Part shown: piece after piece, positions 8,411 to 64,000 of the stretch
Layout: each line of letters starts with the position of its first letter
Position numbering within the stretch: the stretch's first letter is position 1
Notes under the pieces: model-generated
Told to the model about the DNA's origin: nothing
Seen by the model: the letters and a program-made list of their open reading frames with translations, nothing else
Databases searched by the model: none
Source: Pristiophorus japonicus
Taxonomy: Eukaryota
NCBI RefSeq assembly: GCF_044704955.1
Contig: NC_091994.1
Span: forward strand, 47,492,001-47,556,000
Direction of reading: 5' to 3'
DNA length: 64,000 nt
Made by a program: the position numbers and the translations under genes

Positions 8411-8420
8411 GAGTGTCAAA

Positions 8421-11217: not shown

Positions 11218-11219
11218 AC

Positions 11220-12210: not shown

Positions 12211-12539
12211 GGAATGGTGGGGGATGCGGCCTGGTTTTGGGCTCCTGATTCCCTTCTTTGGGAGCCATGTAGGGCTGACCGGCACCTTATTGATTTGGGA
12301 CAAGTTGCTGGATGAAGAAAATAAAGGAAAGTGTCAACTGTAGTGGGACGGAGCTCCTAATTCATGCTGCAGTACTCAGCACATTGTTGATAATCACTTC
12401 CTGGAGGACAGTATAAAACGGCCTTGAGCCGCGCAATCCAAGAACTTACTGACTTTGCAAATTGTAACTCGATCCATTTTGACTTCTTGAAGTGACAGAG
12501 GGCAGAGCTCCCCAGCAGACAGCAAGGACCACCCAAAGT

Positions 12540-14465: not shown

Positions 14466-14639
14466 AATAGATGGGGTATTGTGTAGGGATTGTTAACAGG
14501 TTAATTGGGTATGAAGTGAATCGTGACAGTGTCGTGGCTTCTGGATATCATCCATTCCAAAGATGTCCCTTGTAGGAGTTTGGAAGAATGTGATCGATTT
14601 TTCCTGAGTTCACTCTGTCCTCTCTGATTCCCACCGCCC

Positions 14640-17687: not shown

Positions 17688-18074
17688 TGTATTTAGCAGT
17701 TTACTGTCCCCCTCCCCTTTTATAGGGGGCACTTGTAAAATATATAATTTTAATGCCCAAAAATCACAAAAAACCCCCACAAAAAACAAAAAAACAAAAT
17801 AAAAATTTAAATAAGGGGCAGTTGAAAAATGTTTGGAGTGTCCTCCAGATCGGGCGGCACTTGATCTAACTGTTAATTTTATCCCCCAAAAAGAGTTGTA
17901 TTTAGCAGTTTACTGTCCCCCTCCCCTTTTATAGGGGGCACTTGTAAAATATATGATTTTAAAGCCCCCCCCCAAAAAAAGGCATTTGAAAAGCGTCTGC
18001 GTGTCCCCCAGATCGGAGGGCACTTGATCTAACTGTTAATTTTGTCTCCTTAAAAAGAGTTGTATTTAGCAGTT
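17688..18074 (+). mobile_element. Tandem pair of very short 5'-truncated Tx1 3' ends separated by three copies of a TSD
   Basis: TGTATTTAGCAGTT at 17688-17701, 17897-17910 and 18061-18074; units 17702-17896 and 17911-18060 both end AAAAAGAGT and match the Tx1 3' UTR at 19560-19735. Confidence 0.9.
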
Positions 18075-18498
18075 AGTAGAATGGAGTTCATAGTCATACT
18101 GGTCAGCTGCTGGTTGACAGAATATGATAGTCAGCTGGCTGGCAAGTTAGTACTTCGGTAACTAGTTATAACTTTAGTCCCTTCCCTGTTAAGCATGTTC
18201 ACTCATGTTGGAGCACTGGCAACACACACACAGCAAGATTGTCTAAACACTAACTGAGGGGGTTCACCGACAGATTGAGTCAGGACTGTGTATGGGAGTC
18301 ACACAGTAAGTGTCCCAGGGTGAGGAGCTTGCTGTATGGAGAATGTTTCAGATGGTTTCTCTGGGAGGGAGCTGCCAGTAACGTGCGCTGTATCAGTGTG
18401 TGGTGCAGAAAGTGTCCCAGTCCTCCAGCTTTATAAGGTGTCTGTATTAATGAGAGAGCCACAAGCTGAGAGTACTGCACCAGACTGTGGTATGGCGG

Positions 18499-19735
18499 CT
18501 GGAGTGGCGGCTGTCCTGCAGGAGCCGCTGCTCGGGAATCCGTACCTCCATGACCGTGGTTTTAGGTGGCAGTCGGACGAGAGGGCTGTGGCTGGTGAGG
18601 TGACCAGGGTCAGGGGCCTGCTCGATGGCGGAGGAGCGGGCTGGATAGTCCGCCGCGCGGCCGATGCCATCGAGTCGCTAAAAACAGCCCTGGGCCCTGA
18701 CTCCGTTAGGTGTATCGAGGAGGCTCAAGCACGTGGGGAGATCCCGTCCGAACTGACCCCGTCTGGACGGAATTACTCATCGGCGCCAAACCCCGGAACC
18801 TCCCTCGGGAGCCGGCGCTTCACAACTTGAGCCGCCTCAGGTAAATCCCCTCCGTGCCTTTCAGTTCTGCGCGGAGGGGTTTCCTGTACGGGCTGCTCCT
18901 GCACACTCTCAACCTTGCCATCCTCGTCTGCTGTCCGGACACGCCTTGGCGCAACATCTTGCCATCCGGAGGAGGCGGGGGTCCCCGATGGAGTGCACTC
19001 TACGCGGGAGTCCTCCCAGTATTTATCGGGGACTTGGCCTGGAGGGTGGTGCATGGAGCAGTCTCGTGCAACAAATTTTTAAGCCGGTTCACGGGCTCCC
19101 AGGCCACCTGCAATTTCTGCGGTCTGGAAGAGTCCGTGTTCCACGTTTTTATGGAGTGTGCGATGTTGCAGCCACTGTTTCATTATTTAAAGGGGCTGCT
19201 CCTCAATTTCTGGCTGCACTTCAGTCCCACACTCCTGATCTTTGGGCACCCTATGCGGAGGGGAGTGGGTAGGTCCAAGGGCCTCCTCGTAGGACTGCTC
19301 CTGGGCACGGCCAAGGGTGCCATCATCCGGTCCAGGCAGCGGGCGGTCGAGGGGGTCGTTCAGCCCGACTGCCTGCCTCTCTTCCGCGCCTACATCCGGG
19401 CTAGGGTGTCCTTAGAGATGGAGCACGCGGTGTCCACCGGTACACTCGCGGCCTTCCGCGAGAGGTGGGCGCTGGAGGGACTGGAGTGCATCATCACACC
19501 CGGCAACCAAATTTTAATTTCATTTTATGTTTTAAAGTTCAATTTGTTTTAATTGCCGGGTTTTAGTGACCCCTCCCCTTTTATAGGGGGCACTTGTAAA
19601 CTATATGATTTTAATGCCCCCCAAAAAAATCACAAAAAAAAACACAAAAAAAAAGGCCAGTTAAAAGTGTCTGGAGTGTCCCCCAGATCGGGGGGCACTC
19701 GATCTAATGTTTAATTTGTCTCCCCCAAAAAGAGT
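18499..19735 (+). mobile_element. 5'-truncated Tx1-clade LINE (ORF2 C-terminus and 3' UTR)
   Basis: CNFCGLEESVFHVFMEC zinc finger; closely similar to 52201-53265; 13-bp TSD TGTGGTATGGCGG (18486-18498 and 19736-19748). Confidence 0.93.
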
Positions 19736-42383: not shown

Positions 42384-45300
42384 ATTCGGAATGGCCCGAG
42401 CCCATTCTGAATTGAAACTTAACCTTATGCATGAAGTGAATGGGAGGCAGCATGTTTGGTTGGGGTTGGGTTAAGACTGGAAATAATATGGGATGCTTTC
42501 ATGACCTCTCGAATAACCCCACACTGAAAGGTCATAATCTTTCAAGCTAACATAGAATTTTTATTAAGTTCAAGACAGAAATATAGTTTATTTCCCTTTC
42601 TGTGAGTGATTTTACAATGAATTAAACATTCCAAATCTTTTGGAATGCTTTTTTAATATTTTATTGAAGTCGTGGCTTGGTGCAATAGATTTTAAAAGTT
42701 TGTGTAGGGAGTGCTGCTGGATGCTTGCAAGGCTTTGGATGGTAAAGGAATGCCTCTGTCAAGACAGGAAATGCTGGAAATACTCAACAGATAAGGCAGC
42801 AACTGTGGAGAGAGAAACAGAGTTCACATCTCAGGTCGATCCGCTGCCTGACTTGCTGAGTATTTCCAGAGATTTCTGCATTTATTTCAGACTTCCAGCA
42901 TTTTCCGTTTTTAATTTGCGATTTCCAGCATCTGCTAGCAGAGGGAAGGAGAAGGCGCAGAGGAGGAAGACACAGAGAGATAGAAGCAGAAGAGGAGGAA
43001 GCTGATGGGAGGATGCAATGCAGACAGTCCCTTTCTGGCTGGGAGATCCGGGATGGAATCATTCGCCTGCAGTACCAGTGAGCACAACCCCAATTCCTCT
43101 TTCAACATTTGTCCCCACCTTACCTTCCCTCTGTTACTGACCATCACAGCGTTCGCTTGGCCACAATGCTGAAATAAAACCCACCACAATGTAAATGTTC
43201 CAATCCAACTTTATACATCTATTCATCCAACATGACCAGAAGTCAACTAATCACCCTTATGCATTCCCTTAGTGACCGTCTTGTGTGTGCCTTTACCTGT
43301 CCTAATGATGTCACTCAGTGCTACCCCAGTGTCTGCAGCATGGCTGGTGGGAGGCTGCTGACTTTCAGTGGGGGACACTGCAGATGGCCTTGTATGTCGC
43401 CCTCTAGGAGCTGGTGGCTGGGAGTGTCAAATCTTCTCCTTCTCCCTCCTCCTCTCCCTCCTCCTCCCTTCTCCCTCCTCCTACTGCTCGCTCCACGTCC
43501 TCCTCCTCCCTGCTTCTCCTCCTTCCTCCCTCTTCCTCCCTCCTCCTCCTTCCTCTTCTCATTTTTCTTCTTCATCTTCATCTTCCTCCTCCTCTTCCTC
43601 CTCTTTTTCCTCTTCTTCTTAATGCCCAGAAGAAAGTTCAGCTTTAAGAGCTGAAGTCTGCCATTTTAGAATTATTTATTTTTGAGAAGACAGTTGATCT
43701 CTAAGGGCATAAATACTAACTATTTTTCAGGATCATCCACTTGGCATTTCGGGCAAAAGATGATTGAAAACGCTTCAGCCTTGTCTTTTGCAGTCACATG
43801 CTGGGCTCCTCCATCATTGAGGATTGGGATTTTCATGGAGCCTCCTCCTCCCTTTAGTTGTTTAATGGTCCACCACCATTCACGGCTGGATGTGACATGA
43901 CTGCAGAGCTTTGATCTGATCCTTTGGTAGTGGGATCGTTTAGCTTTGTCTGTAGCATGCTGCTTCTGTTGCTTAGCATGTATGTAGTCCTGTGTTGCAG
44001 TATCCCCAGGTTGCCACCTCATTTTTAGGTGTGCCTGGTGCTGCTCCTGACGTGCTCCTGTACACTCTGCATTGAACCAGTTACATAAGGACATAACATA
44101 AGAAATACAAACAGGAGTAGGCCATTTGACCACTCGAGCCTGCTCCACCATTTAATAAGATCATGGCTGATCTGATCATGGACTCAGCTCCACTTCCCTG
44201 CCCACTCCCCATAACCCTTTATTCCCTTATTGCTCAAAAATCTGTCTATCTCTGCCTTAAATATATTCAATGACCCAGCCTCCACTGCTCTCTGGGGCAA
44301 AGAATTTCACAGATTTACAACCCTCTGAGAGAAGAAATTCCTCCTCATCTCAGTTTTAAATGGGCAGCCCCTTATTGTGAGACTATGTCCCTAGTTTTAG
44401 TTTCTCCTATGAGTGGGAATATCTTGTCTGCATCCATCTTGTCGAACTCCCTCATTATGTTATATGTTTCAACAAGATCATCGTACATTCTTCTGAACTC
44501 AAATGAGTTCATGCAATCTACTCAACTTATCTTCATAAGACAACTCTCCCTTATCTCCGGAATGAACCTAGTGAAACTTCTCTGAACAGCCTCCAATATA
44601 AGTATATCCTTCCTTAAATACGGAGACCAAAACTGTATGCTGGACTCTAGCTGTGGCCTCACCAATACCATGTACAGTTGTAGCAGGGCATCTCTGCTTT
44701 TAGATTCCATTCCCCTTGCAATAAAGGCCAATATTCCATTTGCCTTCCTGATTACTTGCTGTACCTGCATACTAACTTTTTGTGTTTCATGCACAAGGAC
44801 CCCTTGGTCCCTCTGTACTGCAGCATGTTGCAATTTTTGTCCATTTAAATTATAATTTGCTTTTCTATTTTTTCTGCTAAAGTGGCTAACCTAACATTTT
44901 CCCACATTGTACTCCACCTGCCAAATTTTTGCCCACTCACTTAGCCTGTCTATGTTTCCCTTTGCAGATTTTTTGTGTCCTCCTCAGAATTTGCTTTTCC
45001 ACCCATCTTTGTATCCTGGTTCCTGGCTTAATGATAATGGCGGAGTGAGGGATATACTGGGCCATGATGTTACAGGTTGTGGTGGAATACAGTTCTGCTG
45101 CTGCTGATGGCCCACAGTGCCTCATGGAAGGCCAGTTTGAGCTATCCCATTTACCACGGTGGTAGTGCCACACAACACGATGGAGGGTGTCCTCAGTTTG
45201 AAGACGAGACTTCGTCTCCACATGGACTGTGCTCTGGTCATTGCTACCAATACTGACATGGGCCGATGCATCTGCGACAGGTAGATTGGTGAGTCGAGGT

Positions 45301-47589
45301 CATATATTTATTCCCACGTGTTGGTTCATGACCTGCCGCAGGCCCAATCTGGCAGCTTTGTTCTTCAGGAACTGCCAGCTCAGTCAGTAGTGGTGCTACC
45401 GAGCCACTCTTGTTGATGCACATTGAAGTAATCCACCCACAGTACATTCTGTGCCCTTGATACCCTTCGTGCTTCTTCCAAGTGGTGTTGGCCATGGAGG
45501 AGTAATAATTCATCAGCTGAGGAAGGGTGGTAAGTGGTAATCAGCAGGAGGTTTCCTTGCTCATGCTTAACCTGAAACCATGAGACTTTGTGGGGTTCGG
45601 AATCAGTGTTGAGAACTCCCAGGGCCACTACCTACTGACTGTATTCCACTGTGCCGCCCCCTCTGGTGGATCCGTCCTGCCGGTGAGTCAGGACATACCC
45701 AGTAATGGTGATGGAGGAGACTAGGACATTGGCTGAATAGTATGATTTTGTGAGGATGACTATGTCAGGCTGCAGCTCTCTCAATTTTGGCACAAGCCCC
45801 AGATGTTGGTGAGAAGGACTTTGCAGGGTCGACTGGGCTGGGTGTGCAGTTGTCGTGTCCGAAGCCGGTGCCGATATCAATGCTGGATGTTCTCACCGGT
45901 TTTATTCTTATTATTGTTTTCCGTAGCGTTTTGTACAACTGAGTGGCTTGCTCGGCCCTTTCAGAAGGCAGTTAGGAGTCAAATACATTGTTGTGTGACT
46001 GGAGTCACGTATAGGCCAGACCAGGTAAGGACGGCAGATTTCCTTCCCTAGGAGGACATCAGTGAACCAGATTGGTTTTATGACAGTCCTGTAGTTTCAT
46101 GGTCACCATGACTGATACTAGCTTTATATTCCAGATTTATTCAATTAATTGAATTTAAATTACGCAGCTGTTGTGGTGGGATTTGAATTCACTTCTCTGG
46201 ATCATTAGTCCAGGCCTCTGGATTAGTAGTTCACTAACATAACCACTGTGCTATTGTACTTACATTGGGGTTTGAGTGGGCAATGCTTAGATTCTAAAAT
46301 TCTCATCCTTTCTTTCAAATAACTCTATGGTCTCGCCCCTTCCTACTTCTGTAACGTCCTCTAGTCCTACGACCCTCCAATATCTCTGCACTGCTCCAAT
46401 TCTGCACATCGCTCTATCATTGGCACTATGCCTTCAGCAGCTTAGGCTCCAAACTTTGGGATTTCCTTGCTAATCCTCTCCGCCTCTCTACATCTCTCTC
46501 CTCCTTCAAGACGCCATTAACACCTACTTCTTGGATCAAGCTTAAGGTCACCTGTCCTAATATCGCTTTATGTGGCTTGGTGTCAGATTTGTGTCTCATT
46601 ACGCTCCTCTGAATCTCCTTGGGGCATTTTCTATTTTAAATGAGCTAGATAAATGCAAGTTGCCGTTCAGATATGTAATGCAAAGCTTTTGTTCTGTATA
46701 TGTAATGCAAAGCTATAGGCCATGGGCCAGACTGTATTCGAGCATTAGAAGCCCAGGCACATCCATCCTATTTGTGCTTACATTTGTAATTTACTGCCTC
46801 ATTGAGTGGGCTGTTTGACTATCTTAACTTCATAGTTAAACTGAACTACCCACTGAGCCACGGCTGACACTAGTCACTGCTCATCCTTCATTGCCTCATG
46901 CCTCCCTATCTCTGTAACCTCCTCCAATCCTAGAACCCGCCCCCCCCCACTTCTCTGAACTCACCCTTCCTGTGACTCGGGCATTTTTTACATTCTGCCC
47001 TTCCTTTGTCTCAACATTGGGGGCCGTGCCTTCAGCCGTCTCGGCCTCATGCTCTGGAATTCCCTCCCTAAACCCTTCTCTCTCTCCACCTCCTTCACTG
47101 ACTTGAAGACCTTCCTTAAAACCTCCTCTTGACCAAGCTTTCAGTCACCCCTCCGAATATTGTCTTTGTCTCGATGTCCTTGCTGTCTGATTACACCTCT
47201 GTGAGTCGCCGTGGGCTTTCTACTATGTAAAGGCAGGTTGTTGCTGCTGGGAATGGTGGGGGATGCGGCCTGGTTTTGGGCTCCTGATTCCCTTCTTTGG
47301 GAGCCATGTAGGGCTGACCGGCACCTTATTGATTTGCGACAAGTTGCTGGATGAAGAAAATAAAGGAAAGTGTCAACGGTCGTGAAACGGAGCTCCTAAT
47401 TCATGCTGCAGCACTCAGCACATTGTTGATAATCACCTCCTGGAGGGTGTGAACCGACAGTATAAAACGGCCTTGATCCGCGCAACCCAAGATCTTACTG
47501 ACTTTGCAAATTGTAACTCGATGCATTTTGACTTCTTGAAGCGACAGAGGGCAGAGCTCCCCAGCAGACAGCAAGGACCACCCAAAGTC

Positions 47590-47846
47590 CCGTGCCCCTG
47601 TCCAAGTACATCCCTCCCCCAGCCAAAGTGCCTTACCCCAGTCCAAGTAAATGCCTCCCCCAGCCAAAGTGCCTTACCCAATCCAACGACTTCCCTCCCC
47701 CAGCGAAATGCCTTATCCCAATCCAAGTGTAAGGCTCTCCAGCCAAAGTACCTTACCCCAGTGAAAGAGTATGCCTCCCACAGCCAAAGTCCCAAAGCCC
47801 AGCGCAAGTGCATGCCTACCCCAGCCAAACTACTTCTCTCCCCCAG
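47590..47846. repeat. Copy-2 remnant of the 41-bp minisatellite (continues at 62161-62265 after the CR1)
   Basis: Same unit as 12540-14465. Confidence 0.88.
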
Positions 47847-48220
47847 GAGTTCGGCGAGAGGCGGGAGTTCCGGGGATCGGAGAGGCCTACAAAAGGCCAG
47901 TGAGACCAGGAGCAGCGCGAGTTCCATGAGAGGCGGGGGTTCCGGGGATCGGAGAGGCCTACAAAAGGCCAGTGAGACCAGGAGCAGTGCGAGTTCGGTG
48001 AGAGGCGGGAGTTCCGGGGATCGGAGAGGCCTACGAAAGGTCAGTGAGACCAGCAGCAGTGCGAGTTCGGTGAGAGTTCCGGGGATCGGAGAGCCCTACA
48101 AAAGGCCAGTGAGACCAGGAGCAGCGTGATTTCGACGAGAGGCGGGAGTTCCGGGGATCGGAGAGGCCTACAAAAGGCCAGTGAGACCAGGAGCAGCGCG
48201 AGTTCGGCGAGAGGCGGGGC
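47847..48220 (+). repeat. 72-bp tandem monomers in the CR1 5' UTR
   Basis: Unit starts at 47847, 47919, 47991, 48063, 48128 and 48200. Confidence 0.92.
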
Positions 48221-51200
48221 TTGTGAAGCTGCAGGGGGAAGGCAAAAAAGAACTAGAAAAAAATAGAAAGGTGATGTCACAGCCAAGGGGGTAAGTGATT
48301 GGCTGGTGATTGGTGAGTAGTTTTTCTTTTTTCTCTTCAATAACAGTGAGTAAACTTTAGCATTGTTGTTGCCAATTTAAGTGTATCTAAGGGTTAAGTC
48401 ATGGCAGGAGAGCTCGGTCATTTGATATGCTCCTCCTGTACCATGTGGGAACTCGGGGACACTTCCGGTGTCCCTGACGACTACGTGTGCGGGAAGTGTA
48501 TCCGCCTCCAGCTCCTGACCGTCCGTGTTGCGGAATTGGAGCTGAGGGTGGATTCACTCTGGAGCATCCACGATGCTGAGAATGACGTGAGTAGCACGTG
48601 TAGCGAGTTGGTCGTACCGCAGGAGAAGGATCCACAGCCAGATAGGGAATGGAAGGCCAGCAGGAAGAGCAGTGCAGGGAAGGTAGTGCAGGGGTCCTCT
48701 GCGGTCATCCTCCTGCAAAACAGATACACCGTTTTGAGTACTGTTGAGGGGGATGACTCATCAGGGGAGGGCAGCAGCAGCCAAGTTCATGGCACCGTGG
48801 CTGGCTCTGCTGCACAGGAGGGCAGGAAAAAGAGTGGGAGAGCTATAGTAGTAGGGGATTCAATTGTAAGAGGAATAGATAGGCGTTTCTGCGGCTGCAA
48901 CCGAGACTCCAGGATGGTATATTGCTTCCCTGATGCAAGGGTCAAGGATGTCTCGGAGCGGGAGCAGGATATTTTGAAAGGGGAGGGTGAACAGTCAGTT
49001 GTCATGGTGCACATTGGTACCCATGATATAGGTAAAAAAAAGGGATGAGGTCCTACGAGACGAATTTAAGGAGCTAGGAGCTAAATTAAAACATAGGACC
49101 TCAAAAGTAGTAATCTCTGGATTGCTACCAGTGCCACGTGCTAGTCAGAGTAGGAATCGCAGGATAGTTCAGATGAATACGTGGCTTGAGCAGTGGTGCA
49201 GCAGGGAGGGATTCAAATTCCTGGGGCATTGGAACCGGTTCTGGGGGAGGTGGGACCAGTACAAACCGGACGGTCTGCACCTGGGCAGGACCGGAACCAA
49301 TGTCCTAGGGGGAGTGTTTGCTAGTGCTGTTGGGGAGGAGTTAAACTAATATGGCAGGGGGATGGGAACCAATGCAGGGAGACAGAAGCAAAAGACAGAA
49401 AGGAGATGAGTAAAAGTGGAGGGCAGAGAAACCCAAGGCAAAAAACAAAAAGGGCCACTGTACAGCAAAATTCTAAAGGGTCAAAGTGTAATAAAAACGC
49501 AAGCCTGAATGCTTGGTACCTGAATGCGAGGAGTATTCGGAACCCAGGAAAGGGCTCTGAGCTAGTTAGAGTGGGTGAGAGCTCAGATGAACAGGACCCC
49601 AAGAAAGAATTCAAAAGGCAGGAGGCAACAGAGCAGAGTAGCACTGGGGTAAGTGTAAACCACAAGGTGATAGGAAGGGACAATATGTATGATTATAAAG
49701 GGGCTGCAGGAGGGGTCAAAGCTAAAAATCATGGTTTAAAAACCAGTCCGAAAACACTCTACCTAAACGCATGCAGCATTCGAAATAAAGTAAATGAGTT
49801 GACGGCTCAAATCATTACAAATGGGTATGATTTGGTGGCCATTACAGAAACGTGGTTGCAGGGTGGCCAAGACTGGAAATTAAACATACAGGGGTATCTG
49901 ACAATTCGGAAAGATAGACAAGAAGGGAAAGGAGGTGGTGTAGCTCTGTTAATAAAGGATGATATCAGGGCAGTTGTGAGAGACGATATTGGCTCCAATG
50001 AACAAAATGTTGAATCATTGTGGGTGGAGATTAGAGATAGTAAGGGGAAAAAGTTACTGGTGGGCGTAATTTATAGGCCCCCAAATAATAACTTCATGGT
50101 GGGGCGGGCAATAATCAAGGGAATAATGGAGGCATGTGTAAAAAGAACGGCAGTAATCATGGGGGATTTTAACCTACATATCGATTGGTCAAATCAAATC
50201 GCACGGGGTAGCCTTGAGGAGGAATTCATAGAATGCATACGGGATTGTTTCTTAGAACAGTATGTTACAGAACCTACAAGGGAGCAAGCTATCTTAGATC
50301 TGGTCCTGTGTAATGAGACAGGAATAATAAACGATCTCCTAGTAAAAGATCCTCTTAGAATGAGTGATCACAGTATGGTTGAATTTGTAATACAGATTGA
50401 GGGTGAGGAAGTAGTGTCTCAAACGAGTGTACTATGCTTAAACAAAGGGGACTACAGTGGGATGAGGGCAGAGTTGGCTAAAGTAGACTGGGAACACAGA
50501 CTAAACGGTGGCACAATTGAGGAACAGTGGAGGACTTTTAAGGAGCTCTTTCATAGTGCTCAACAAAAATATATTCCAGTGAAAAAGAAGGGCGGTAAGA
50601 GAAGGGATAACCAGCCGAGGATAACCAAGGAAATAAAGGAGAGTACCAAATTAAAAACCAATGCGTATAAGGTGGCCAAGGTTAGTGGGAAAGTAGAAGA
50701 TTGGGAAAATTTTAAATGATAGCAAAGAATGACTAAGAAAGCGATAAAGAAAGGAAAGATAGATTACGAAAGTAAAATTGCACAAAACATAAAAACAGAT
50801 AGTAAAAGCTTTTACCGATATATAAAACGGAAGAGAGTGACTAAAGTAAATGTTGGTCCCTTAGAAGATGAGAAGGGGGATTTAATAATGGGAAATGTGG
50901 AAATGGCTGAGACCTCAAACAATTATTTTGCTTCGGTCTTCACAGTGGAAGACACAAAAACCATGCCAAAAATTGCTGGTCACGGGAATGTGGGAAGGGA
51001 GGACCTTGAGACTATCACTATCACTAGGGGGGTAGTGCTGGACAGGCTCATGGGACTCAAGGTAGACAAGTCCCCTAGTCCTGATGAAATGCATCCCAAG
51101 GTATTAAAAGAGATGGCGGAAGTTATAACAGATGCATTCGTTATAATCTACCAAAATTCTCTGGACTCTGGGGTGGTACCATCGGATTGGAAAGCAGCTA

Positions 51201-52200
51201 ATGTAACGCCTCTGTTTAAAAAAGGGGGCAGACAAAAGGCAGGTAACTAGGTCGGTTAGTTTAACATCTGTAGTGGGGAAAATGCTTGAAGCTATCATTA
51301 AGGAAGAAATAGCGGGACATCTAGATATGAATAGTGCAATCAAGCAGACGCAACATGGATTCATGAAGGGGAAATCATGTTTAACTAATTTACTGGATTT
51401 CTTTGAGGATATAACGAGCATGGTGGATAGAGGTGTACTGATGGATGTGGTGTATTTAGATTTCCAAAAGGCATTCGATAAGGTGCCACACAAAAGGTTA
51501 CTGCAGAAGATAAAGGTACACGGAGTCAGAGGAAATGTATTAGCATGGATCGAGAATTGGCTGGCTAACAGAAAGCAGAGAGTCGGGATAAATGGGTCCT
51601 TTTCGGGTTGGAAATCGGTGGTTAGTGGTGTGCCACAGGGATCGGTGCTGGGATCACAACAGTTTACAATATACATAGATGGCCTGAAAGAGGGGACGGA
51701 GTGTAGTGTAACAATATTTGCAGATGACATAAAGATTAGTGGGAAAGCGGGTTGTGTAGAGGACACAGAGAGGCTGCAAAGAGATTTAGATCGGTTAAGC
51801 GAATGGGCTAAGGTTTGGCAGATGGAATACAATGTCGGAAAATGTGAGGTCATCCACCTTGGAAAAGAACACAGTAAAAGGGAATATTATTTGAATGGGG
51901 AGAAATTACAACATGCTGCGGTGCAGAGGGACCTGGGGGTCCTTGTGCATGAAACTCTTTTGTAGTTTACCTGTAAAACATAAACATTAATCGGTGCCAC
52001 CCGACCTGGATGACACACCAGATATTTACAAGGCCCATTATTTTTCTTTTTTGTGGTTTTTTTTTTGTGTTTTTCTTTTTTTTGGTTTTTTTTTGGGCAC
52101 TAAAATCAAATTTTTTTTTTCCTCCAGTGCCCCCTATAAAAGGGGAGGGGGACACTAAAAGCACTGGCAATTAAAACAAATTAAACTTTAAAACGTAAAA

Positions 52201-55200
52201 TCAAATTAAAATTTGGTTGCCGGGCATGATGATGCACTCCAGTCCCTCCGGTGCCCACCTCTCGCGGAAGGCCGCGAGCGTACCGGTGGACACCGCGTGC
52301 TCCATCTCCAAGGACACCCTGGACCGGATGTAAGAGCGGAAGAGAGGCAGGCAGTCAGGTTGAACGACCCCCTCGACCGCCCGCTGCCTGGACTGGCTGA
52401 TGGCACCCTTGGCCGTGCCCAGGAGCAGTCCTACGAGGAGGCCCTCGGACCTACCCGTTCCCCTCCGCACAGGGTGCCCAAAGATCAGGAGAGTGGGACT
52501 GAAGTGCAGCCAGAATTTCAGGAGCAGCCCCTTTAAATAATGAAACAGGGGCTGCAACCTCGTGCACTCAATAAAAACAGAACACGGACTCCTCCAGACC
52601 GCAGAAATTGCAGGCGGCCTGGGAGTCCGTGAACCGGCTTAAAAATTTGTTGCACGGCACTGCTCCGTGCACCACCCTCCAGGCCAAGTCCCCGATGAAT
52701 AGTGGGAGGACTCCCGCATAGCGTGCCCTCCATCGGGGACCCCCGCCTCCTCCGGACGGCAAGATGGTATGCCATGGCGTGTCCGGACGGCCGGCGAGGA
52801 TGGCAAAGTTGAGAGTGTGCAGGAGCAGCCCGTACAGGAAACCCCTCCGCACGGAACTGAAAGGCACGGAGGGGATTTCCCCGAGGCGGCTCAAGTTGTG
52901 AGGCGCTGGCCCCCGAGGGAGGTTCCGGGGTTTTGCGCCAATGAGGAATTCCGTCCGGACGGGGGTCAGCTTGGACGGGATCTCCCCACGTGCTTGAGCC
53001 TCCTCGATGCACCTAACAGAGTCAGGGCCCAAAGCTGTTTTTAGCGACTCGATGGCTTCGGCCGCGCGGCGGACATCGGCTGAATTTAGGCGCCGTGCCA
53101 GCGTGCCTGGTGCCATCCAGCCCGCTCCTCCGCCATCGAGCAGGTCCCTGACCCTGGTCACCTCACCAGCCACAGCCCTCTCTTCCGACCGCTACGTAAA
53201 ACCTCGGTCGTGGAGGTACGGATTCCCGAGCAGCGGCTCCTGCAGGACAGCCGCCACTCCAGCCGGCGGAGAGCTGCGCTTGGCGGAGACTTTGTTCCAG
53301 ACCCTGATGAGTTCCTTGTAAAAGACAGGCAGCTCCCGGAGGGTGGTCCTGACGCCCCCCAAGTTCACAAACAGGAGCTGCGTGTCGTAATTGAGGTCGC
53401 GCTGCTGGCGGAAGAAATACGTCGCCAGAGCACACCACCTAGGAGGGGGCTCGACGTAAAGGTATCTCTGCAGGGTCTGAAGACGGAAAGTCGCGAGCTG
53501 GGCGCTGACGCACACCAACGACTGACCGCCCTCCTCAAGCGGGAGACTCAAGACCGCGGCAGAGACCCAGTGCTTCCTGTTGTTCCAGAAGAAGTCCACC
53601 AGCTTCTTCTGTATCTTGGCGACAAACGCAGGGGGAGGGGTCAAAGTGACCAGCAGGTACCACAACATTGCGGCCACCAGCTGGTTTATGACTAGCGCTC
53701 GACCCCTGTAGGACAGCACTCGGAGCAATCCTGTCCAGCGCCCTAGGCGAGCGGCGACCTTGGCCTCCAGCTCCTGCCAGTTCGCCGGCCAGGCTTCCTC
53801 GTCGGGGCTAAGGTAGACTCCCAGATAGAGGAGATGGGTCGTGCTCCAGGCAAAAGGCCTGAGCTCCTCTGGCAGGGAGTCCACCCGCCACTGACCCACC
53901 AGGAGTCCGGAACATTTCTCCCAGTTGATCCTGGCGGAGGACGCGGCCGAGTAAATCTCCTGGCACTCACGCATCCTCCGCAGGTCAGCGGGATCCTCTA
54001 CCGTGAGGAGCACGTCATCGGCGTAAGCCGAGAGGACGACCTCCACGTCCGGCCCTTGCAGAGCCAGTCCCGTCAACCTCGTCCGCAGGAGGCGCAGGAA
54101 AGGCTCCACGCAGACGGCGTATAACTGGCCGGACATGGGGCATCCCTGGCGCACCCCTCTCCTAAAGCGAAGGGGCGCCGTCAAGGACCCGTTAACCTTA
54201 ATCAGACACTCCGCGGCGGCGTACAAAAATCGGATCCGGGCGACGAAATGCGTCCCGAACCCGAAAGCGCGCAGAGTTCCGAGCAGATAGTCGTGATCCA
54301 CCCTGTCGAACGCCTTCTCTTGGTCGAGAGATAAGAAGGCGACCGACAGACCAGCCTCCTGGGAATGATGGATGAGGTCCCGGACCAGATGGATGTTGTC
54401 GTGGATTGTCCGGCCCGGGACCGTGTAGGACTGGTCGGGGTGGATCATGTGGTCCAGCACGGCACCAAGGCGAGCAGACATCGCCCTGGCGAAGATTTTG
54501 TAGTCCGTGCTGAGGAGGGAGACCGGGCGCCAGTTCTTAAGGAGGCAGAGATCACCCTTCTTAGGCAGCAGGACGATGACTGCCCTGCGCCAAGAGAGGG
54601 GCATCTCCCCGGTCGCCAGACTTTCCCCCAGGACCCGCGCGTAGTCGCCCCCCATGACGTCCCAGAATGCCCTGTGGAACTCCACGGTCAGCCCGTCCAG
54701 CCCCGGGGTTTTTCCCCTCAAGAGCCGGTCGAGGGCACCGGTCAGCTCCGCCAGGCTTAGCGGAGCTTCCAAATTTTCACCGCCCTCCGGGCTGACTTTC
54801 GGCAGGTCCTCCCACAAAACTCTACGCGCTTCCTCGCTGGACGGCTCCGGAGAGAACAGAGCCCCGTAATATTCACAGGCCCTGTTGTTGACGCCCTCCG
54901 GATCCGAGACGAGAGAGCCGTCGTCGGCCAGCAGCGTCAAGAGCTGCTTACGGACACTCTGTCTTTTTTCCAGCGAGTAGAAGAAGGGGGAGCCGCGGTC
55001 CAGATCCCGCAGGAACCGGATCCGCGACCTCACGAACGCGCCTCGGGACCCGACGAGCTGCAGGTCCTTCAGCGCGGCCTTCTTCGCTTCGTACACCGTC
55101 CGCAGGGCCGGGTCCTCGACGACTTGACCGAGATGGGATTCCAGGTCGAGCACCTCTTTTTCTAGGCGCCCGACTCTGGCCGCCCGCCTCTTGGTCGACC

Positions 55201-56098
55201 CCCTCGCGTACTCTTGACAGAAGACGCGGACGTGAGCCTTGCCCACGTCCCACCATAGCCTCAAGGAGGGGAAGCCCCCCTGCTTCCTTCTCCAGTCGGA
55301 CCAGAATCGACGGAACGAGTCCTGGAATCGCACGTCCTCCAGCAGCCGGTTGTTAAAATGCCAGTACGCGGACTCCGTCCTCGCGCGGAGCGAAGCGAGC
55401 TCCGCCCACACCAGGTGGTGGTCCGAACACGGCACTGGCCGCATGGAGGCCGCCGGGACGCAGGAAACGTACGCCCGAGACACGTAAAGGCGGTCGACTC
55501 TGGACCATCCTACTCCAGGCCTCACCCAAGTAAAGGCGCTGGAGTCGGGGTGGAGATTTCGCCAGACGTCCACCAAGTCGAAGGACCCGACCAGATCCCT
55601 CAACTTCTCCATCGCCGTCATGCACTGCGGGGCACCGGAGCGGTCCCTCGCCTCGAGGGTGCAGTTAAAATCCCCCCCGAGGGCAATGCAGTCGCCAACG
55701 TCGACGGAGCCAAGAAGAGCGGACACCTCTTCAAAGAAACGCGTTTGCTGTGGGCCAGGCTGAGGGGCGTACACGTTCACGAGATGGAGCGGCACGTCCC
55801 CCAGGCGAACCGTTACGTGCAGCAAGCGGCCTGGCACGGGCTCCTCGACCCCCAAGATCTCCGGCTGAAAATGCGGGCCCAGCAAGATGGCCACCCCACT
55901 AGAAGTGGCGGTGAGGTGGCTCATGCGGACCTCTACTTGCCATTCCAGGAGCCACGTGGCTTCGTCTCCCGGAACGGTGTGGGTTTCTTGCAGGAAGCAC
56001 ACCGCATATTTCCCCTCCCGCAGGAGCGTAAAATTGTGAAATCTACAGCGTGCCCCTCTGCCGCCGTTGATGTTGAGGCTGGCTATGGTTATCTTCAT
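52201..56098 (-). pseudogene. Tx1 ORF2 (APE endonuclease, RT, C-terminal zinc finger)
   Basis: SLNINGG, LQETH, GGDFN, SDHH, DQEKAFDRV, GVRQGCPMS, YADDV, CNFC; nonsense codon at 53192-53194 and frameshift near 52575. Confidence 0.93.
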
Positions 56099-56124
56099 GG
56101 CAAAAGCATAGTGCAACCTCTACC

Positions 56125-58187
56125 TTAACCTATTATGGGGGAGGGAGCGGAGTCTTTTGTTGAACTCCACTCCCTCCGCAGCCCAGCGAGGAGTCCCTCG
56201 AGCTCGCGCTGCTCAAGGTGTTGCGCCTTTGTCAAGGGCCCGCCCGCGGCCAAGGTTTTAGCGGTGGCGCGGACGGACCCCTTGATCAGCTCTGGCTCGG
56301 ACCATTTGTCCAGGGCCAGTTGGGCTCGGTTGCAGCGACCCCGGCTCTGGGCCAAAAAGTCCCGGAGTTCCTTTGCAGGAATGAGGAGGGTCTCAGCGGC
56401 GGCCGCGAGCAGATCCACCGCCTCGCTGGCGGTGGTCTCTCGTTCTTCTCCCGCGTCCCCCACCGAGTCCCCGTCCTCCTCCGGGAGGTGGCCGCCAGCA
56501 GCCGGCCCATCGACCTCACAAGGTACGGTAAATGACCCGGCCGCTCCAACCGGCCCTGGCTCTGCCCCGATCCCACCCCCAGGATCGTCGGCAGAGGAGT
56601 CCCCACTGGGCTCTTTTAAAAGTGGTGCTGGGTCGGGAAACGACAGCGGAAGGGGTTCCCCCTCCGCCCCAGGAACCGGGGAACAAAGAGAGACCCGGCC
56701 ATAGGAAATCCCCAGGCCCTCCAAGTGCTCCAGCTCCAAAGTAGGGGGCGAGGGTGGGTGTTCCTCCCCCTCCCCGCTGCCACCCACCGGCCCAGCATGT
56801 ACAGTGTTGTTATAATTATTAATTCCAGTTTCTGCCGGGTCGAGCGACTCCCGGGGGAAGTTGGATAATAGCTGGGCGGGCTCAGGTTCGGCCTTTTCGG
56901 CCCCGCCCGCCTCAGTCCCCAGGACGCCCGGCCCGGCGGCTACGCATTCCTCCGCTGGCCCCACGCCCCCCACGACAGGCAGATCCTCCACGCCATCCCC
57001 GGGAGGCAGAGGCTGGGCAGCCTCGACTGTCTCACCCTCCCCGGGGACAGACTCCTCTCGCCTACAGCGCAGCTTGGGGGCGCTGGTGGGGGACGCGGGA
57101 CACGCGGCGGGCACCGACTCCTCCGCGGAGGGATGTTGTTCCCCCTCCGCCTCATCGGAGCGGCGCCTCCTTTTGTTCCTGGGGGTGCGCGGAGGCAGGG
57201 AGACCTCCATGTCTGCCGAGTCCTCCCGCTCCACCCCCCCCTTTTTCTTTTCTTGCCCGCGCCCGAGACCCTCTGCGGTATTGGTCAAGGGCTCGGGCAC
57301 GGGCTCAGGGCACCCCGCGCTTGCCGGTGACTGGGTTGGGCCGAGCGCGGTGGTCAAACTTTCCGGCGCACCGAGGGGATCCGCCTCGAGATGTTTCGCC
57401 CTCGTCCGCGCCTTCCTTCCGATCGGACTCTCTCCCTCCCCCCCGCCAGAGGCCGTGAAAGCACGCGGACGCTACTAGGGGGAGGGGTGGCGGCGGCGCC
57501 AGCCTTGGCCGCCTTCGGTGGTTTGGCGGCTTTGGTGGCGGGGCAGTTCTTGCGAACGTGCACCACCTCCCTGCAGGCATGGCACCGCACGCCGTCCGAC
57601 GTCCAGAAGACGCGGTAGGCAGTCCCCTCGTGCACCACATTAAAATTTCCCTCCGTCGTCTCCTCCCGCGCCAGCCGGACAAAGAGCTGGCGGCGGAAGG
57701 AGAACACGTGGCGCAGGCTGCTCTCCCTGAGGCCGAGCGGTATGGGGTTGATCCCCGACCTTACCTCCCCCAGTTGGTGTAGGTGAGGGAGGAGGAGCTC
57801 AGCGGGAACAAAGGGCGGGACGTTTGAAATGATGACCTTCTGCGCGGTGGCCTCGAGAGGGTCCACCGGCAGGAACGTCCCGCCCACCGTGAGCCCCTTT
57901 TCGAGGGCCAGGGACACCGCCCGCTCCGACCCCAGGAAGAACACGGCCTTCCCAGACATCTTGGAGGCCGCGACAATGGCCGAGGGGCCGACTACCCCGG
58001 CCATCGCCCGCACGCACTCCTCGATGCTCATTGTGGGGTGAGTGTAGCCCTTGACCCCGTGTTTCTTCATTATAAGTCTGAAAGGTGGCAGGGCAGTAGG
58101 TGGCGCAGGAGGTGCCGTGGTTGTGGATGCCGCCTGCGCATAAGTCCTAGCTGGCCCTGCCACCGGCGTAGATGGGGTCGCCATCAC
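56125..58187 (-). pseudogene. Tx1 ORF1 (RRM-like region, zinc knuckle, long disordered region)
   Basis: KVIISNVPPFVP and CHACREVVHVRKNC; split by a frameshift near 57460. Confidence 0.88.
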
Positions 58188-59148
58188 GGGGTCCCTTTAA
58201 GGGCTACACCCACCCCAAAGTCACAGGCCTTAATGGTCTTTATTGGCCTCGTTTGTGTTTTGAGCAGAGGGAGCTCTGAAAGAGGTACACCTCTCCCCTA
58301 GTTAACGATTGGGGAGGGGCCTTGTTCCCTCTGCTCAGTGTCTTAATTGTTTTGTTTTTTAAAATTAGGAGGAAGGGCTCTCAGAGAGAGAGGGGAGAGA
58401 CAGAGAGAGAGAGATAGAGTGAGGGGGTGCGGGAAAGAGGGAGGCTACGAGGGCAGGTCTCCCCTCACAGCGATGGGTGGGTGTTTTTCTTGGGGTGCAC
58501 TCCCCAGATGATGGAAAAAAAAGAAACACAGTCTTTGGGGTGATCTTCGGGTGGGGGGAGAAGATGTCTTCACCAGGGGCAGCTAGAGCCACCCAGGCAC
58601 ACACTCCCAACGATGTTCAATAGGTGATTAAATATTCTTCAGCCAGGTAGCTCCAGCTATCCCAGGCTAGGCAATGGGGGAGGGGTGTTTCAATTGTGTG
58701 TGGGGCCTAGCTGTAGGCAAGACCCCCACACACACTTCCACACACACACACCCCCCGCGATGTTCCGGCCCTCAGTGGTCTTCTTTCCTCCCCCCACCGA
58801 TACAACAAAGTCTATTGGGGAATGCAGCAAAACACACCCACCTGTCGAAGATGTGGAAATGACTCTCCCTCCTTCCACACTGGATGGTGTTTCCTCAGGT
58901 TGTTCTTTCCCCCTCTCTCCAACTCTCTGTAGTTGTAATAAATGATAATTGTTCAGCTCTCCACCTCTCCCTTCAGATGTTGAATGGGTAGCAAGCTAGC
59001 CCTTTCCTTCTCTTCCTGGGCTGTTCTCAGGGCTCACTCCAGGCCTTCCAAGGCAGGAGCAAAAGCAGCAGCTCCTTCTCTCACTGCTCACAGCTCCAAC
59101 TGAGCAGGACATGCCTCCACTGCTCCACGATTGGTCCTTGTGCATGAA

Positions 59149-61473
59149 ACTCTTTTTGGAGTTTATCTGCAAAACATAAAACATTAATCTGTGCCACCTG
59201 ACCTGGATGACACACCAGACATTTACAAGGCCCTTTTTTTCTTTTTTGTGTTTTTTTTTTTGTGTTTTTCTTTTTTTTTTTTTCTTTTTGGGCACTAAAA
59301 TCACATTTTTTATTTTTTTTCCAGTGCCCCCTATAAAAGGGGAGGGGGACACTAAAAGCACCGGCAATTAAAACAAATTAAACTTTAAAACGTAAAATCA
59401 AATTAAAATTTGGTTGCTGGGCGTGATGATGCACTCCAGTCCCTCCGGTGCCCACCTCTCGCGGAAGGCCGCGAGCGTACCGGTTGACACCGCGTGCTCC
59501 ATCTCCAAGGACACCCTGGACCGTATGTAAGAGCGAAAGAGAGGCAGGCAGTCAGGTTGAACGACCCCCTCGACCGCCCGCTGCCTGGACCGGCTGATGG
59601 CACCCTTGGCACCTTGTGCATGAAACTCTTTTTGGAGTTTATCTGCAAAACAAAAACATTAATCGGTGCCACCCGACCTGGATGACACACCAGACATTTA
59701 CAAGGCCCTCTTTTTTTGTTTTTTTTGGGGGGGGTTTTTTGTGTTTTTTTTATTTTTTTTATTTTTGGGCACTAAAATCACCTTTTTTCCCCAGTGCCCC
59801 CTATAAAAGGGGAGGGGGACACTAAAAGCACCGGCAATTAAAACAAATTAAACTTTAAAACGTAAAATCAAATTAAAATTTGGTTGCCGGGTGTGATGAT
59901 GCACTCCAGTCCCTCCGGTGCCCACGTCTCGCGGAAGGCCGCGAGCGTACCGGTGGACACCGCGTGCTCCATCTCCAAGGACACCCTGGACCGGATGTAA
60001 GAGCGGAAGAGAGGCAGGCAGTCAGGTTGAACGACCCCCTCAACCGCCCGCTGCCTGGACCGGCTGATGGCACCCTTGGCACCTTGTGCATGAAACTCTT
60101 TTGAGTTTACCTGCGAAAACATAAAACATTAAACGGTGCCACCCGACCTGGGTGACACTCCAGACATTTACAAGGCCCTTTTTTTTTTTCCCCCCTTTTT
60201 TTTTGTGTTTTTCTTTTTTTTTTTTTTTGGGCACTAAAATCACAATTTTCCCCAGTGCCCCCTATAAAAGGGAAGGGGGACACTAAAAGCACCGGCAATT
60301 AAAACAAATTAAACTTAAAAACGTAAAATCAAATTAAAATTTGGTTGCCGGGCGTGATGATGCACTCCAGTCCCTCCGGTGCCCACCTCTCGCGGAAGGC
60401 CGCGAGCGTACCGGTGGACACCGCGTGCTCCATCTCCAAGGACACCCTGGACCGGATGTAAGAGCGGAAGAGAGGCAGGCAGTCAGGTTGAACGACCCCC
60501 TCGACCGCCCGCTGCCTGGACCGGCTGATGGCACCCTTGGCACCTTGTGCATGAAACTCTTTTTGGAGTTTACCTGTAAAACAAAAACATTAATCGGTGC
60601 CACCCGCCCTGGATGACACACCATACATTTACAAGGCCCTCTTTTTTTTTTTCCTTTTTTTGGTTTTTTTTTTGGGCACTAAAATCAAATTTTCCTTTTC
60701 CCAGTGCCCCCTATAAAAGGGGAGGGGGACACTAAAAGCACCGGCAATTAAAACAAATTAAACTTTAAAACGTAAAATCAAATTAAAATTTGGTTGCCGG
60801 GCGTGATGATGCACTCCAGTCCCTCCGGTGCCCACCTCTCGCGGAAGGCCGCGAGCGTACCGGTGGACACCGCGTGCTCCATCTCCAAGGACACCCTGGA
60901 CCGGATGTAAGAGCGGAAGAGAGGCAGGCAGTCAGGTTGAACGACCCCCTCGACCGCCCGCTGCCTGGACCGGCTGATGGCACCCTTGGCACCTTGTGCA
61001 TGAAACTCTTTTTGGAGTTTATCTGCAAAACAAAAACATTAATCGGTGCCACCCGACCTGGATGACACACCAGACATTTACAAGGCCCTCTTTTTTTGTT
61101 TTTTTTGGGGGGGGTTTTTTGTGGGTTTTTTTGTGTTTTTTTTTTGGGCACTAAAATCACCTTTTTTCCCCAGTGCCCCCTATAAAAGGGGAGGGGGACA
61201 CTAAAAGCACCGGCAATTAAAACAAATTAAACTTTAAAATGTAAAATCAAATTAAAATTTGGTTGCCGGGCGTGATGATGCACTCCAGTCCCTCCGGTGC
61301 CCACGTCTCGCGGAAGGCCGCGAGCGTACCGGTGGACACCGCGTGCTCCATCTCCAAGGACACCCTGGACCGGATGTAAGAGCGGAAGAAAGGCAGGCAG
61401 TCAGGTTGAACGACCCCCTCAACCGCCCGCTGCCTGGACCGGCTGATGGCACCCTTGGCACCTTGTGCATGAA
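59149..61473 (-). mobile_element. Array of five ~0.45-kb 5'-truncated Tx1 copies, each followed by CCTTGTGCATGAA
   Basis: Units 59149-59611, 59625-60081, 60095-60542, 60556-60991 and 61005-61460; 13-bp repeats at 59612, 60082, 60543, 60992 and 61461. Confidence 0.95.
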
Positions 61474-64000
61474 TCCCAAAAAGTTAGTTTGCAGGTGCAG
61501 CAGGTAATCAGGAAGGCAAATGGAATGTTGGCCTTCATTGTGAGAGGGATGGAGTACAAAAGCAGGGAGGTCCTGCTGCAACTGTACAGGGTATTGGTGA
61601 GGCCGCACCTGGAGTACTGCGTGCAGTTTTGGTCACCTTACTTAAGGAAGGATATACTAGCTTTGGAGGGGGTACAGAGACGATTCACGAGGCTGATTCC
61701 GGAGATGAGGGGGTTACCTTATAGATAATGGATTGAGTAGACTGGGTCTTTACTCGTTGGAGTTCAGAAGGATGAGGGGTGATCTTATAGAAACATTTAA
61801 AATAATGAAAGGGATAGACAAGATAGAGGCAGAGAGGTTGTTTCCACTGGTCGGGGAGACTAGAACTAGGGGCCACAGCCTCAAAATACGGGGGAACCAA
61901 TTTAAAACCGAGTTGAGAAGGAATTTCTTCTCCCAGAGTGTTGTGAATCTGTGGAATTCTCTGCCCAAGGAAGCAGTTGAGGCTAGCTCATTGAATGTAT
62001 TCAAATCACAGATGGATTTTTATTCAATAAGGGAATTAAGGGTTATGGGGAGCGGGTGGGTAAGTGGAGCTGAGTCCACGGCCAGATCAGCCATGATGGC
62101 GGAGCAGGCTCGAGGGGCTAGATGGCCTACTCCTGTTCCAAATTCTTATGTTCTTCTGTTGAGCCAAAGTGCCTTATCCCAGTCCATGTGGATGCCTCCC
62201 CCAGCCAAAGTGTCTTACACCAGTCCAAGTGGATGCCTCCACCAGCTGAAGTGCCTTACCCAAGCACGTAGATGGGGTATTGTGTATGGATTGTTAACAG
62301 GTTAATTGGGTATGAAGTGAATCATGCCAATTTTGTGACTTCTGTTTATCATCCACTCCAACGATGTCCCTTGTTGGGGTTTTGAAGAACGTGATCTGTT
62401 TTTCCTGAGTTCCCGCTCTCCTCTCCGATCCCACCCGCCCGCCACGCCGCCGCCAGCCGCTCTCCAACAGCCTCTCTCACTCGCGGCCCCAAGGCCCTCC
62501 GACACCCTCAACTGCCTCCCCCGGCCGCCGCTCGGGACTCGTGGCTCATTGCTCAGCGGGAGGCCCGGTCGGCCTAGCGAGTCCCGGTGGGCCCAGTCAG
62601 TCCATGGGTGTGTGGGGGAATTGGTGGGCCTTGCGAGTCCCAGGGAGGGGGAGTCGGTGGGCCTAGCGAGTCCCGAGAGCAGGGGAGGGGGGCAGCGGAG
62701 TCTCGGGGCTCAGCTCCTGCCTCTCGGCACCACGTGGGCAGAATGATTCGGGGCCTGGGAGGGGGCGGTGGGCGGAGCTTGACAGGGGTGGGGCTTGTCG
62801 TCTGTCGGTCAAAAAAGTGCAGTGCAGGGCGGGGGGGCTGGACGGACGCCTGTCTGTCCAAGAAATGTGCAGCACAAATAGTTAGCCTTAAAACGGACCT
62901 CTATCGTCCATTTTCACCAAAAAGTGGAAACTAGGCCCAAAATATCGCTGGAAAAATAGGTCCCCAAGTTTCGGCTCACTTTGCCAAAATGATCGCCGAA
63001 CTGATCGCCCAAAACAAGGCCCATCCCACTTTCGGCACAGAGTCAGCACTTCGCTGGGCTGATGGAAGGCCGAAAACATCGCTGAGAAATAGCTGCTTTT
63101 CCCGGGCTTTACAGAAGGAAATGGGCACTACGGATGCCATTTTGAAGATTGGACGACAGGTGGGGGCAACAGAAAAAACGAGCTAAATAGTTGTGAGTTA
63201 TTTAGAGAGTTATTTATAGATAGATCAACTCAGAATATGATATTATGGTATATATATTGAGAGTAGCTATTGTATAGGCATTTTTTTGTGAAAAGTGTTT
63301 TGTAGATAGTGAAAAGAATTATTGATATTGTTGAGGTCTATTAGACTGACTGGTATACAGTATAGAGAGAGTAGAGAGATTAGTTTAATTTAGTGAAAGT
63401 AATTATTGATAGTGATGGGGCCTATGCTTTCTCTGCCATTACTTGTAACTGCTCACACGCTGGTTTCTGAAAGGATCAAGCGAAGTGATGGCAGAGTAAT
63501 GTGTAGTCCCCTGCAGCAATGGTAGCTGTGACATCGCCCGTCACACACTCCATCATGTACAGGTCGACATGGGCTGTTCGGGAGTCTTCCATCATTTCCA
63601 GACCGGTAATCCTGGACTCCAAGCTGTGTGCAGAGCCCCGTAGAATATTAGAGAGGGACTCCTCCATGTTCCTTGACATTGCCAATAGGCTCTCTGGCAG
63701 GCTAGCCATTGCACCCAGCACTTTGGTCTGCATGTCCATCACCCTTCTGCTGAAGACCGACCCATCAAGGTCCTTATCTGAGTCTTGTGCAGCAGAACCC
63801 GTGTGCGAACTCACTCTCCGGGAAGCTGACCCCGAGCTACCCTTTCCCCCCTGGCCTTGCTGCAGCCCACTTGTGCCCGGTGCCTCACCTGTGCAGATCT
63901 CGCTTCTACTCTAGCCTCAAATATGCGCAGTGCCAGTTTCTGAGCTACTTTCTGCGAGTGACAAATGCAGCAACGCTGCGTTGTCTTCTTCTCCCCCCTC

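Follow-up and report, generated by a model that had tools for sequence, protein, structure and literature searches.

A Tx1-Clade LINE Inserted Repeatedly at One Nucleotide of a CR1 Subfamily in Pristiophorus japonicus, Probably Guided by a Two-Part Target Signal

In the Pristiophorus japonicus genome, a Tx1-clade LINE has inserted thousands of times at one nucleotide of a CR1 subfamily. Its target signal probably consists of two parts, i.e., a CANNTG word about 18 bases upstream of the nick, likely read by a protein of the element itself outside the endonuclease, and a short core at the nick, which would be TTCA in the CR1-directed lineage and TGT in a sister lineage. Intact copies, thousands of precise insertions, and a sister lineage that has about 95% identity in the endonuclease gene but another target make this young vertebrate LINE suited to testing how APE-type LINEs acquire and switch targets and by what means new insertions are joined at their 5′ end. 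The element is furthermore a candidate LINE-on-LINE parasite, disabling copies of a dominant CR1 subfamily, and tools for site-specific gene insertion might be developed from it.

The insertions were analyzed in a window of 64,000 nucleotides (the whole stretch of DNA under study, on contig C18) and by searches of the 5.9 Gb genome. Features of the window are listed in Table 1. As read from the frame, the CR1 coding sequence runs to ...RDLGVLVHE at 51953 and continues with SQKVSLQVQQ from 61474. The gap of about 9.5 kb between the two halves holds one 7,179-bp Tx1 and five units of 449–476 bp (lengths that include the 13–14 bp target copy), all on the minus strand, and one target copy follows each of the six Tx1 units. 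A sequence-only reading of the window had already described a CR1 frame that breaks and resumes about 9.5 kb later around antisense insertions, and the positions 51953/61474 and the six minus-strand units bear this out. The host element has an ORF2 with a PF14529-type endonuclease and a reverse transcriptase (RT) as well as a short-repeat 3′ tail; from these features and the resemblance of its motifs, we take it to be a CR1. No insertion is present at the homologous CR1 sites near 9757, 37160, and 44787, as the same reading had cautioned. Regarding the surroundings, a block of ~4.7 kb is duplicated (7641–12378 and 42651–47417, spacing ~35 kb, 91–96% identity) and contains two of the empty CR1 sites. 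The window also holds a 41-bp minisatellite array and shorter copies of it (12475–14470, 47576–48290, and 62162–62263), one of which lies beside the 5′ part of the host CR1.

Table 1. Coordinates of the CR1, Tx1, and target-site features in the window.
Position	Strand	Feature	Basis or remark
17688..18075	+	Two type-B short units in tandem, one common 5′ joint, different 3′ UTRs	Read directly
18486..19735	+	Type-B truncated Tx1 at an off-target site, 13-bp duplication TGTGGTATGGCGG	
49325..51953	+	Host CR1 ORF2, endonuclease and RT part, with stops/frameshifts	Pfam PF14529/PF03372, PF00078
51940..51953	+	Target-site copy TCCTTGTGCATGAA, 3′ junction of the full-length Tx1	Presumed primer strand for reverse transcription
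51954..59132	-	Full-length Tx1-clade LINE, 7,179 bp, without poly(A), 3′ end ...AAAAGAGT	
59133..59148	+	16-bp target match: 14-bp duplication plus, probably, the element's own 5′-terminal bases	GGGCC/GGACC 5′ ends elsewhere
59149..59624	-	Truncated unit adjoining the full-length copy; likely the first short insertion and founder of the common 5′ joint	Order is presumptive
59625..60094	-	Truncated unit; 3′ subtype and two rare variants in common with 61005–61473	
60095..60555	-	Truncated unit; last 72 nt identical to copy L057 on another contig	
60556..61004	-	Truncated unit; last 72 nt identical to copy L088 on another contig	
61005..61473	-	Truncated unit farthest out, 5′ target copy included; probably a twin or local copy of 59625–60094	
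61474..62155	+	Host CR1, 3′ continuation from SQKVSLQ to its own 3′ end	Reading frame
61492..61497	-	CACCTG word (CAGGTG on +), 18 nt from the nick, likely upstream address	

By its protein sequence, the inserted element is placed in the Tx1 clade. In the full-length copy of the window, ORF1 (start at 58184) is broken, and ORF2 (start at 56098) has a stop at codon 969 and frameshifts further on. Five copies among the loci fetched outside the window carry an intact ORF2 of 1,299 aa, whose best named full-length match is the Xenopus Tx1L ORF2 (YTX2_XENLA; 50% identity over the full length). Domains PF03372, PF00078, and PF13966 were recognized in this protein, the last one weakly and below the cut-off, and the layout with an N-terminal APE endonuclease, RT, and a C-terminal zinc-binding region matches that of the clade. 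Two ORF1 copies of ~699 aa contain a possible zf-CCHC at residues 200–215, matched with E-values of 0.005–0.03, below the Pfam cut-off. The best PDB match of the endonuclease was 2v0r, an L1/Tx1L loop chimera, which scored only marginally better than L1. A domain search of ORF1p and ORF2p revealed neither a bHLH nor another dedicated DNA-binding domain. Target and growth pattern differ from those of the published Tx1 elements considered below.

A 30-base pattern from the 3′ UTR gave 507 matches, and 90 loci were sampled from contigs C1–C3. This sample covers the subtypes caught by the 30-mer, and its count excludes L031–L035 (window) and L036–L040 (chosen by joint). The CR1 site was occupied by 80 of the 90 copies, with TTCATGCACAAGG (≤2 mismatches) next to 74 and a CR1-derived variant next to six more, and the remaining ten copies were off-target, mostly at targets starting with TTC. 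The sequence-only reading had made its claim depend on a genome-wide enrichment of this site in the 3′ flanks; such enrichment was found, as 80/90 flanks compare with 0/50 for the UTR type at 19560–19735. Genome-wide, the exact CR1|Tx1 junction occurred 6,844 times (reversed-pattern control: 0), a second junction pattern matched 6,341 times, and the corresponding CR1 site had 24,593 exact matches in a young and very abundant CR1 subfamily. Roughly one in five exact sites of this subfamily is thus interrupted, a figure that is approximate because the junction and site patterns are unequal in length. Kojima's criterion for a target-specific Tx1 family is that more than 20% of flanks belong to one sequence type; here, the figure was 80/90, with 81 different positions of 5′ truncation. 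The insertions also bear the marks of target-primed reverse transcription, namely target-site duplications, a fixed 3′ end, and 5′ truncation with microhomology. Altogether, sequence-specific targeting of one CR1 nucleotide is strongly supported. At four loci (L016, L062, L082, and L083), the insertion consists of just the last ~11 element bases with a full target duplication.

Counted from TCATG, the target-site duplication was 13 bp long in 14 of the 24 cases having one and 14–15 bp in the rest, and it was absent in four further cases. The usual length is thus 14 bp, and the longer duplications were probably produced by microhomology. In the window, the short units are delimited by CCTTGTGCATGAA (13 bp), and the full-length Tx1 is bordered by a 16-bp match (51938–51953 = 59133–59148). 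Full-length copies start with GGACC, GGGCC, or CACC, followed by AAT, and they do so at target-deleted junctions as well (L055 and L080). Because the same 5′-end bases occur at these junctions, the 16-bp match does not represent a distinct duplication length, and its extra bases are probably the element's own 5′ end (GGACC/GGGCC). Both match lengths reported earlier are present. The independence of the insertions holds by their 3′ UTR subtypes, whereas its derivation from 16 versus 13 bp was weak; and the site was indeed used repeatedly, although the count of "at least twice" gives way to about five source RNAs according to the 3′ subtypes. In L015, L053, and L095, the first T of the 3′ copy corresponds to an A in the 5′ copy. 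This T hence comes from the RNA, which leaves an uncertainty of one base in the position of the nick. Recurrent target deletions in L055, L075, and L080 stop at the upstream CACCTG, suggesting a pause or an alternative top-strand break there.

Copies with the second 3′ UTR type (19560–19735 and 17688–18075), here called type B as opposed to the CR1-directed type A, were sampled at 50 loci (20/20 and 30/42 matches), and none of these lay at the CR1 site. The window copies at 17688 and 18486, for which other targets had been noted before, do use other targets and both belong to this sister lineage. Type-B junctions started with TGT in 37 of 47 parsed cases. A preferred site is located near the start of a ~280-bp LTR-like repeat, with 2,562 exact junctions genome-wide, and a type-B UTR was present in 30/30 LTR-repeat junctions inspected. 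The repeat itself is solo-LTR-like, with TG...CA ends and an AATAAA (3′ flanks of L110 and L141–L143; 5′ flanks of L104, L111, L120, L139, and L150). In an unrooted ORF2 tree of 26 CR1-type and nine type-B copies (one of ten long type-B copies was omitted for gaps), the two groups separated with a FastTree support of 0.99. Endonuclease divergence amounted to 0.053 between the lineages, compared to 0.032 among type-A and 0.059 among type-B copies (26 CR1-type and ten type-B long copies). The majority residue differs at positions 15, 67, 74, 163, and 201, none of which is fixed and none of which lies in the β-hairpin loop, a loop linked to target reading (PMC1950540). Type-B insertions were also seen in the Tx1 5′ UTR just upstream of the ORF1 start (L103, L119, and L138; flank TGTAGCCCTTAAAGGGAC; window 58186–58210). 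The Tx1 family hence inserts into its own relatives.

In both main targets, the CR1 and the LTR-like repeat, a CANNTG word starts 24 nt before the nick. Such a word starting 22–27 nt upstream was found in 32/35 CR1-site and 19/19 LTR-site flanks, compared to a background of 3.5% per 6-nt span. The off-target set comprised 29 automatically labelled flanks, seven of which were dropped by eye (five LTR-target variants and two after another element end), and the L077 row was moved to type B. Among the 22 true off-target flanks, the word was present at 23–25 nt in 14 (6/8 type A and 8/14 type B) and absent in eight, both window type-B sites included. The off-target words were CAGCTG, CACCTG, CAGGTG, CAGATG, CATCTG, CACATG, and CAACTG, i.e., the centre is free and asymmetric words occur in both orientations. 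Within the preferred CR1 subfamily, 4,318 of 20,388 CACCTG sites (21.2%) had no CR1 continuation after the 14-bp core, compared to 105 of 782 TACCTG sites (13.4%; p = 5e-8), and the CATCTG control, which keeps the word, reached 128/568 (22.5%; p = 0.44). These shares mix occupancy with ordinary mutation, so that occupancy itself must fall by a larger proportion than from 21.2% to 13.4%, and TACCTG copies could differ in age. The three empty sites of the window are all TACCTG, which fits the lower interruption of such sites; their CR1 subfamily has TACCTG in 7,141 versus 184 exact sites. The sequence-only reading had suggested a preference for the conserved GVLVH codons of CR1, with a hypothetical evolutionary role as a safe harbour. 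Its choice of site holds (80/90), but the codons as such are a less likely explanation: the TACCTG subfamily encodes identical codons and yet provides 1/34 classifiable occupied flanks versus 31% of exact sites. When sites of the other CR1 subfamily were inspected directly, 3/40 CACCTG and 1/40 TACCTG sites were occupied, with no significant difference in this small sample (p = 0.31), in which one of the three occupied CACCTG loci was the locus that had prompted the test. Given this result and the eight of 22 off-target sites without the word, CANNTG makes insertion likelier, and a strict requirement is not supported. The evidence points to recognition of the upstream CANNTG plus a short nick core rather than of the GVLVH codons as such.

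Several other explanations of the targeting have to be weighed. If the CR1 machinery had multiplied one composite CR1 with a Tx1 fragment inside, the common junction would go back to one ancestral event, and a young host subfamily with 24,593 exact sites would suit such amplification. This scenario is nevertheless extremely improbable. The 81 truncation points exclude a single composite element, the variable 5′ junctions rule out its amplification, and many 3′ subtypes, locus-specific duplications, and the occupation of a second CR1 subfamily speak against it as well. It is also unlikely that specificity resides in the endonuclease only, with the APE domain reading the bases at the nick and the upstream word being a by-product of the repeats hit. 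Target choice of Tx1-type elements is mainly attributed to the endonuclease (PMC4494074), and five of its positions differ in majority residue between the lineages. However, none of the five is fixed, the β-hairpin loop is alike in both lineages, and the divergence between lineages (0.053) stays below the 0.059 within type B, although the lineages are fully sorted by target (0/50). Moreover, unrelated off-target sites carry the word as well, and a single base of it shifts the interruption rate. A more serious competitor, which we regard as possible though not as the likelier reader, is an E-box factor of the host, for instance a bHLH dimer, which would bind CANNTG and tether the element RNP at a fixed distance. 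A free word centre and both orientations of asymmetric words, as seen at the off-target sites, are expected of a two-fold symmetric binder, and no matching domain was detected in the element proteins. The spacing of 23–25 nt, on the other hand, is tight, as if one protein spanned word and nick; the upstream-motif spacing of R2Bm tolerates +1 only (PMC10499050). On account of this tight spacing and the R2 precedent (PMC10499050), we favor an element protein over a host factor as the reader of the word.

The stack of short units adds a second aspect. All five share one joint, AAGG-T-GCCAAGG, at element position 6720, and the exact joint was matched 5/5 in the window and nowhere else. Position 6720 is a microhomology hot spot; it is also the breakpoint at five other loci with A for T, and at a sixth locus with a further variant. 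The 3′ ends of the five units fall into four dispersed subtypes. Across 13 arrays, 32/35 units were nearer to another locus than to their array mate (three ties), a comparison that favors the larger cross-locus pool, and mean 3′ distances were 0.089 for mates and 0.087 across loci. In the first 60 nt past the joint, mates differed by 0.012 and cross-locus copies by 0.028. Adjacent truncated pairs had a common 5′ joint in 23/44 cases for type A and 49/77 for type B (seven pairs unassigned), compared to 27/3,221 cross-locus pairs (0.8%) by chance. Truncated copies also occur in front of full-length ones, where the duplication includes the full-length 5′ end (L043, L069, L097, and L098), and 4/10 off-target type-A loci carry a repeat insertion. 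In L093, two joint mutations are common to two upstream units and absent from the third, which fits annealing of new cDNA to the 5′ end of a resident. Judging from these sequence comparisons, the five short units are likely mostly fresh insertions in which the resident's joint was copied. The units at 59625–60094 and 61005–61473 probably derive one from the other, which leaves about five independent sources for six units.

A single insertion with local tandem duplication and later overwriting of the 3′ ends by gene conversion would account for the identical and locus-unique 5′ joint and for the 59625 and 61005 units being mutual nearest relatives with two rare variants in common, and TE dimers can grow by unequal exchange (10.1101/158386). 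We still consider it quite improbable for the stack as a whole: similarity between mates is lost within about 60–150 nt of the joint, four dispersed 3′ subtypes are present, two units are identical over 72 nt to dispersed copies, and conversion would need to overwrite nearly every unit. A dispersed source for the two look-alike units was not found, as none of the 10/13 other rare-variant loci inspected had the same UTR. This duplicate pair, together with type-B arrays with alternating joints (J1-J2-J1 in L128 and L129) that simple front addition does not explain, indicates that some array growth took another route. The restriction of the exact joint to the window rules out a short, non-autonomous mobile unit whose 5′ end is fixed. 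An assembly artefact is ruled out on the assembled sequence, in which the units differ at 9–41 aligned positions and match different dispersed subtypes. Regarding the order of insertion, CpG decay showed none (16 v 18 and 15 v 22 pairs), and allele painting near the joints pointed both ways, with too few subtype-diagnostic sites. For annotation, the lesson is that common truncation points in tandem arrays need not imply tandem duplication.

Taken together, we propose the following course for fresh insertion. Its products would be those observed, i.e., a fixed 3′ junction without poly(A), 13–14 bp duplications, and variable 5′ truncations. An element protein would bind the word, which is associated with on- and off-target sites and with less interruption when broken. 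Standard target-primed reverse transcription would follow, in which the core is perhaps partly chosen by pairing of read-through RNA with the primer. Each insertion would leave the word and the duplicated core in place on its upstream side, which would keep the site usable and let newcomers land in front of the resident. The new cDNA may then anneal to the resident's 5′ end to complete the insertion and so inherit the joint, as could apply to the roughly half of tandem pairs that have a locus-specific 5′ joint in common and different 3′ subtypes. As a tentative extension, targeting could be modular: an E-box-like address read outside the endonuclease would set the position, the nick bases would be chosen by read-through RNA from the previous site, and one off-target landing could thus give rise to a lineage directed at another target (LTR repeat -> CR1) while the enzyme stays unchanged, with the second strand commonly completed by annealing to the resident. 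The type-A 3′ end contains TTTGCAGRT and CCAAAAAG, which recur in swapped order just past the nick on the plus strand of the CR1 (59149–59175 vs 61474–61497). This match is possibly due to chance, or to RNA-target pairing or capture. The element's 3′ end as a target mimic (A-tract at −9..−5) was set aside, since the sister lineage ends identically but uses a different target.

Among the targets of published Tx1 families are DNA transposons, LTR elements, snRNA genes, and microsatellites (PMC4494074, PMC3747384). For a CR1-targeting Tx1, an E-box address of an APE-type LINE, or inherited truncation joints, we found no literature report; Repbase and the supplements of PMC4494074 on Tx1 targets were outside this search and may hold one. 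Tx1L of Xenopus laevis likewise combines APE endonuclease, RT, and C-terminal zinc knuckle, has a zinc-knuckle ORF1, which our element may share, and inserts sequence-specifically into another mobile element, namely the non-autonomous piggyBac Tx1D (PMC4494074). In contrast, the target described here is the coding region of another LINE, hit in antisense, with evidence for an upstream word and for stacks with inherited 5′ joints. The crocodilian families Tx1-Mar, Tx1-8_Crp, Tx1-4_AMi, and Tx1-9_AMi prefer Mariner, Harbinger, or LTR elements, the latter being a target type like that of our sister lineage, and tandem insertion was noted for them (Kojima 2015, PMC4494074). They are old and degraded, and the passages of PMC4494074 cited here describe no CR1/LINE target, whereas the present family has intact 1,299-aa ORF2 copies and single-nucleotide precision. 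R1 of Drosophila resembles it as an APE-type element with a 14-bp duplication, tandems by insertion into the TSD before the resident, and microhomology priming of the second strand; its tandems arise at the 5′ TSD (PMC2718515). However, R1 targets 28S rDNA, and copying of the resident's truncation point is not among the features of R1 in the cited parts of PMC2718515; double insertion has been described generally (10.1101/158386). Pairing of RNA and target at initiation has precedents in the annealing reported for SART1 and R1Bm (PMC7265360). Regarding the two-part target, selection by the endonuclease only is cited for the APE-type class (PMC10499050), and the closest parallel is R2Bm with its RUM/RASIN, in which an upstream motif lies at a constrained spacing from the nick, corresponding to the genomic association reported here. 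R2Bm differs in that it uses a restriction-like endonuclease and N-terminal ZnF/Myb domains (PMC10499050), whereas our element has an APE domain and no such domains.
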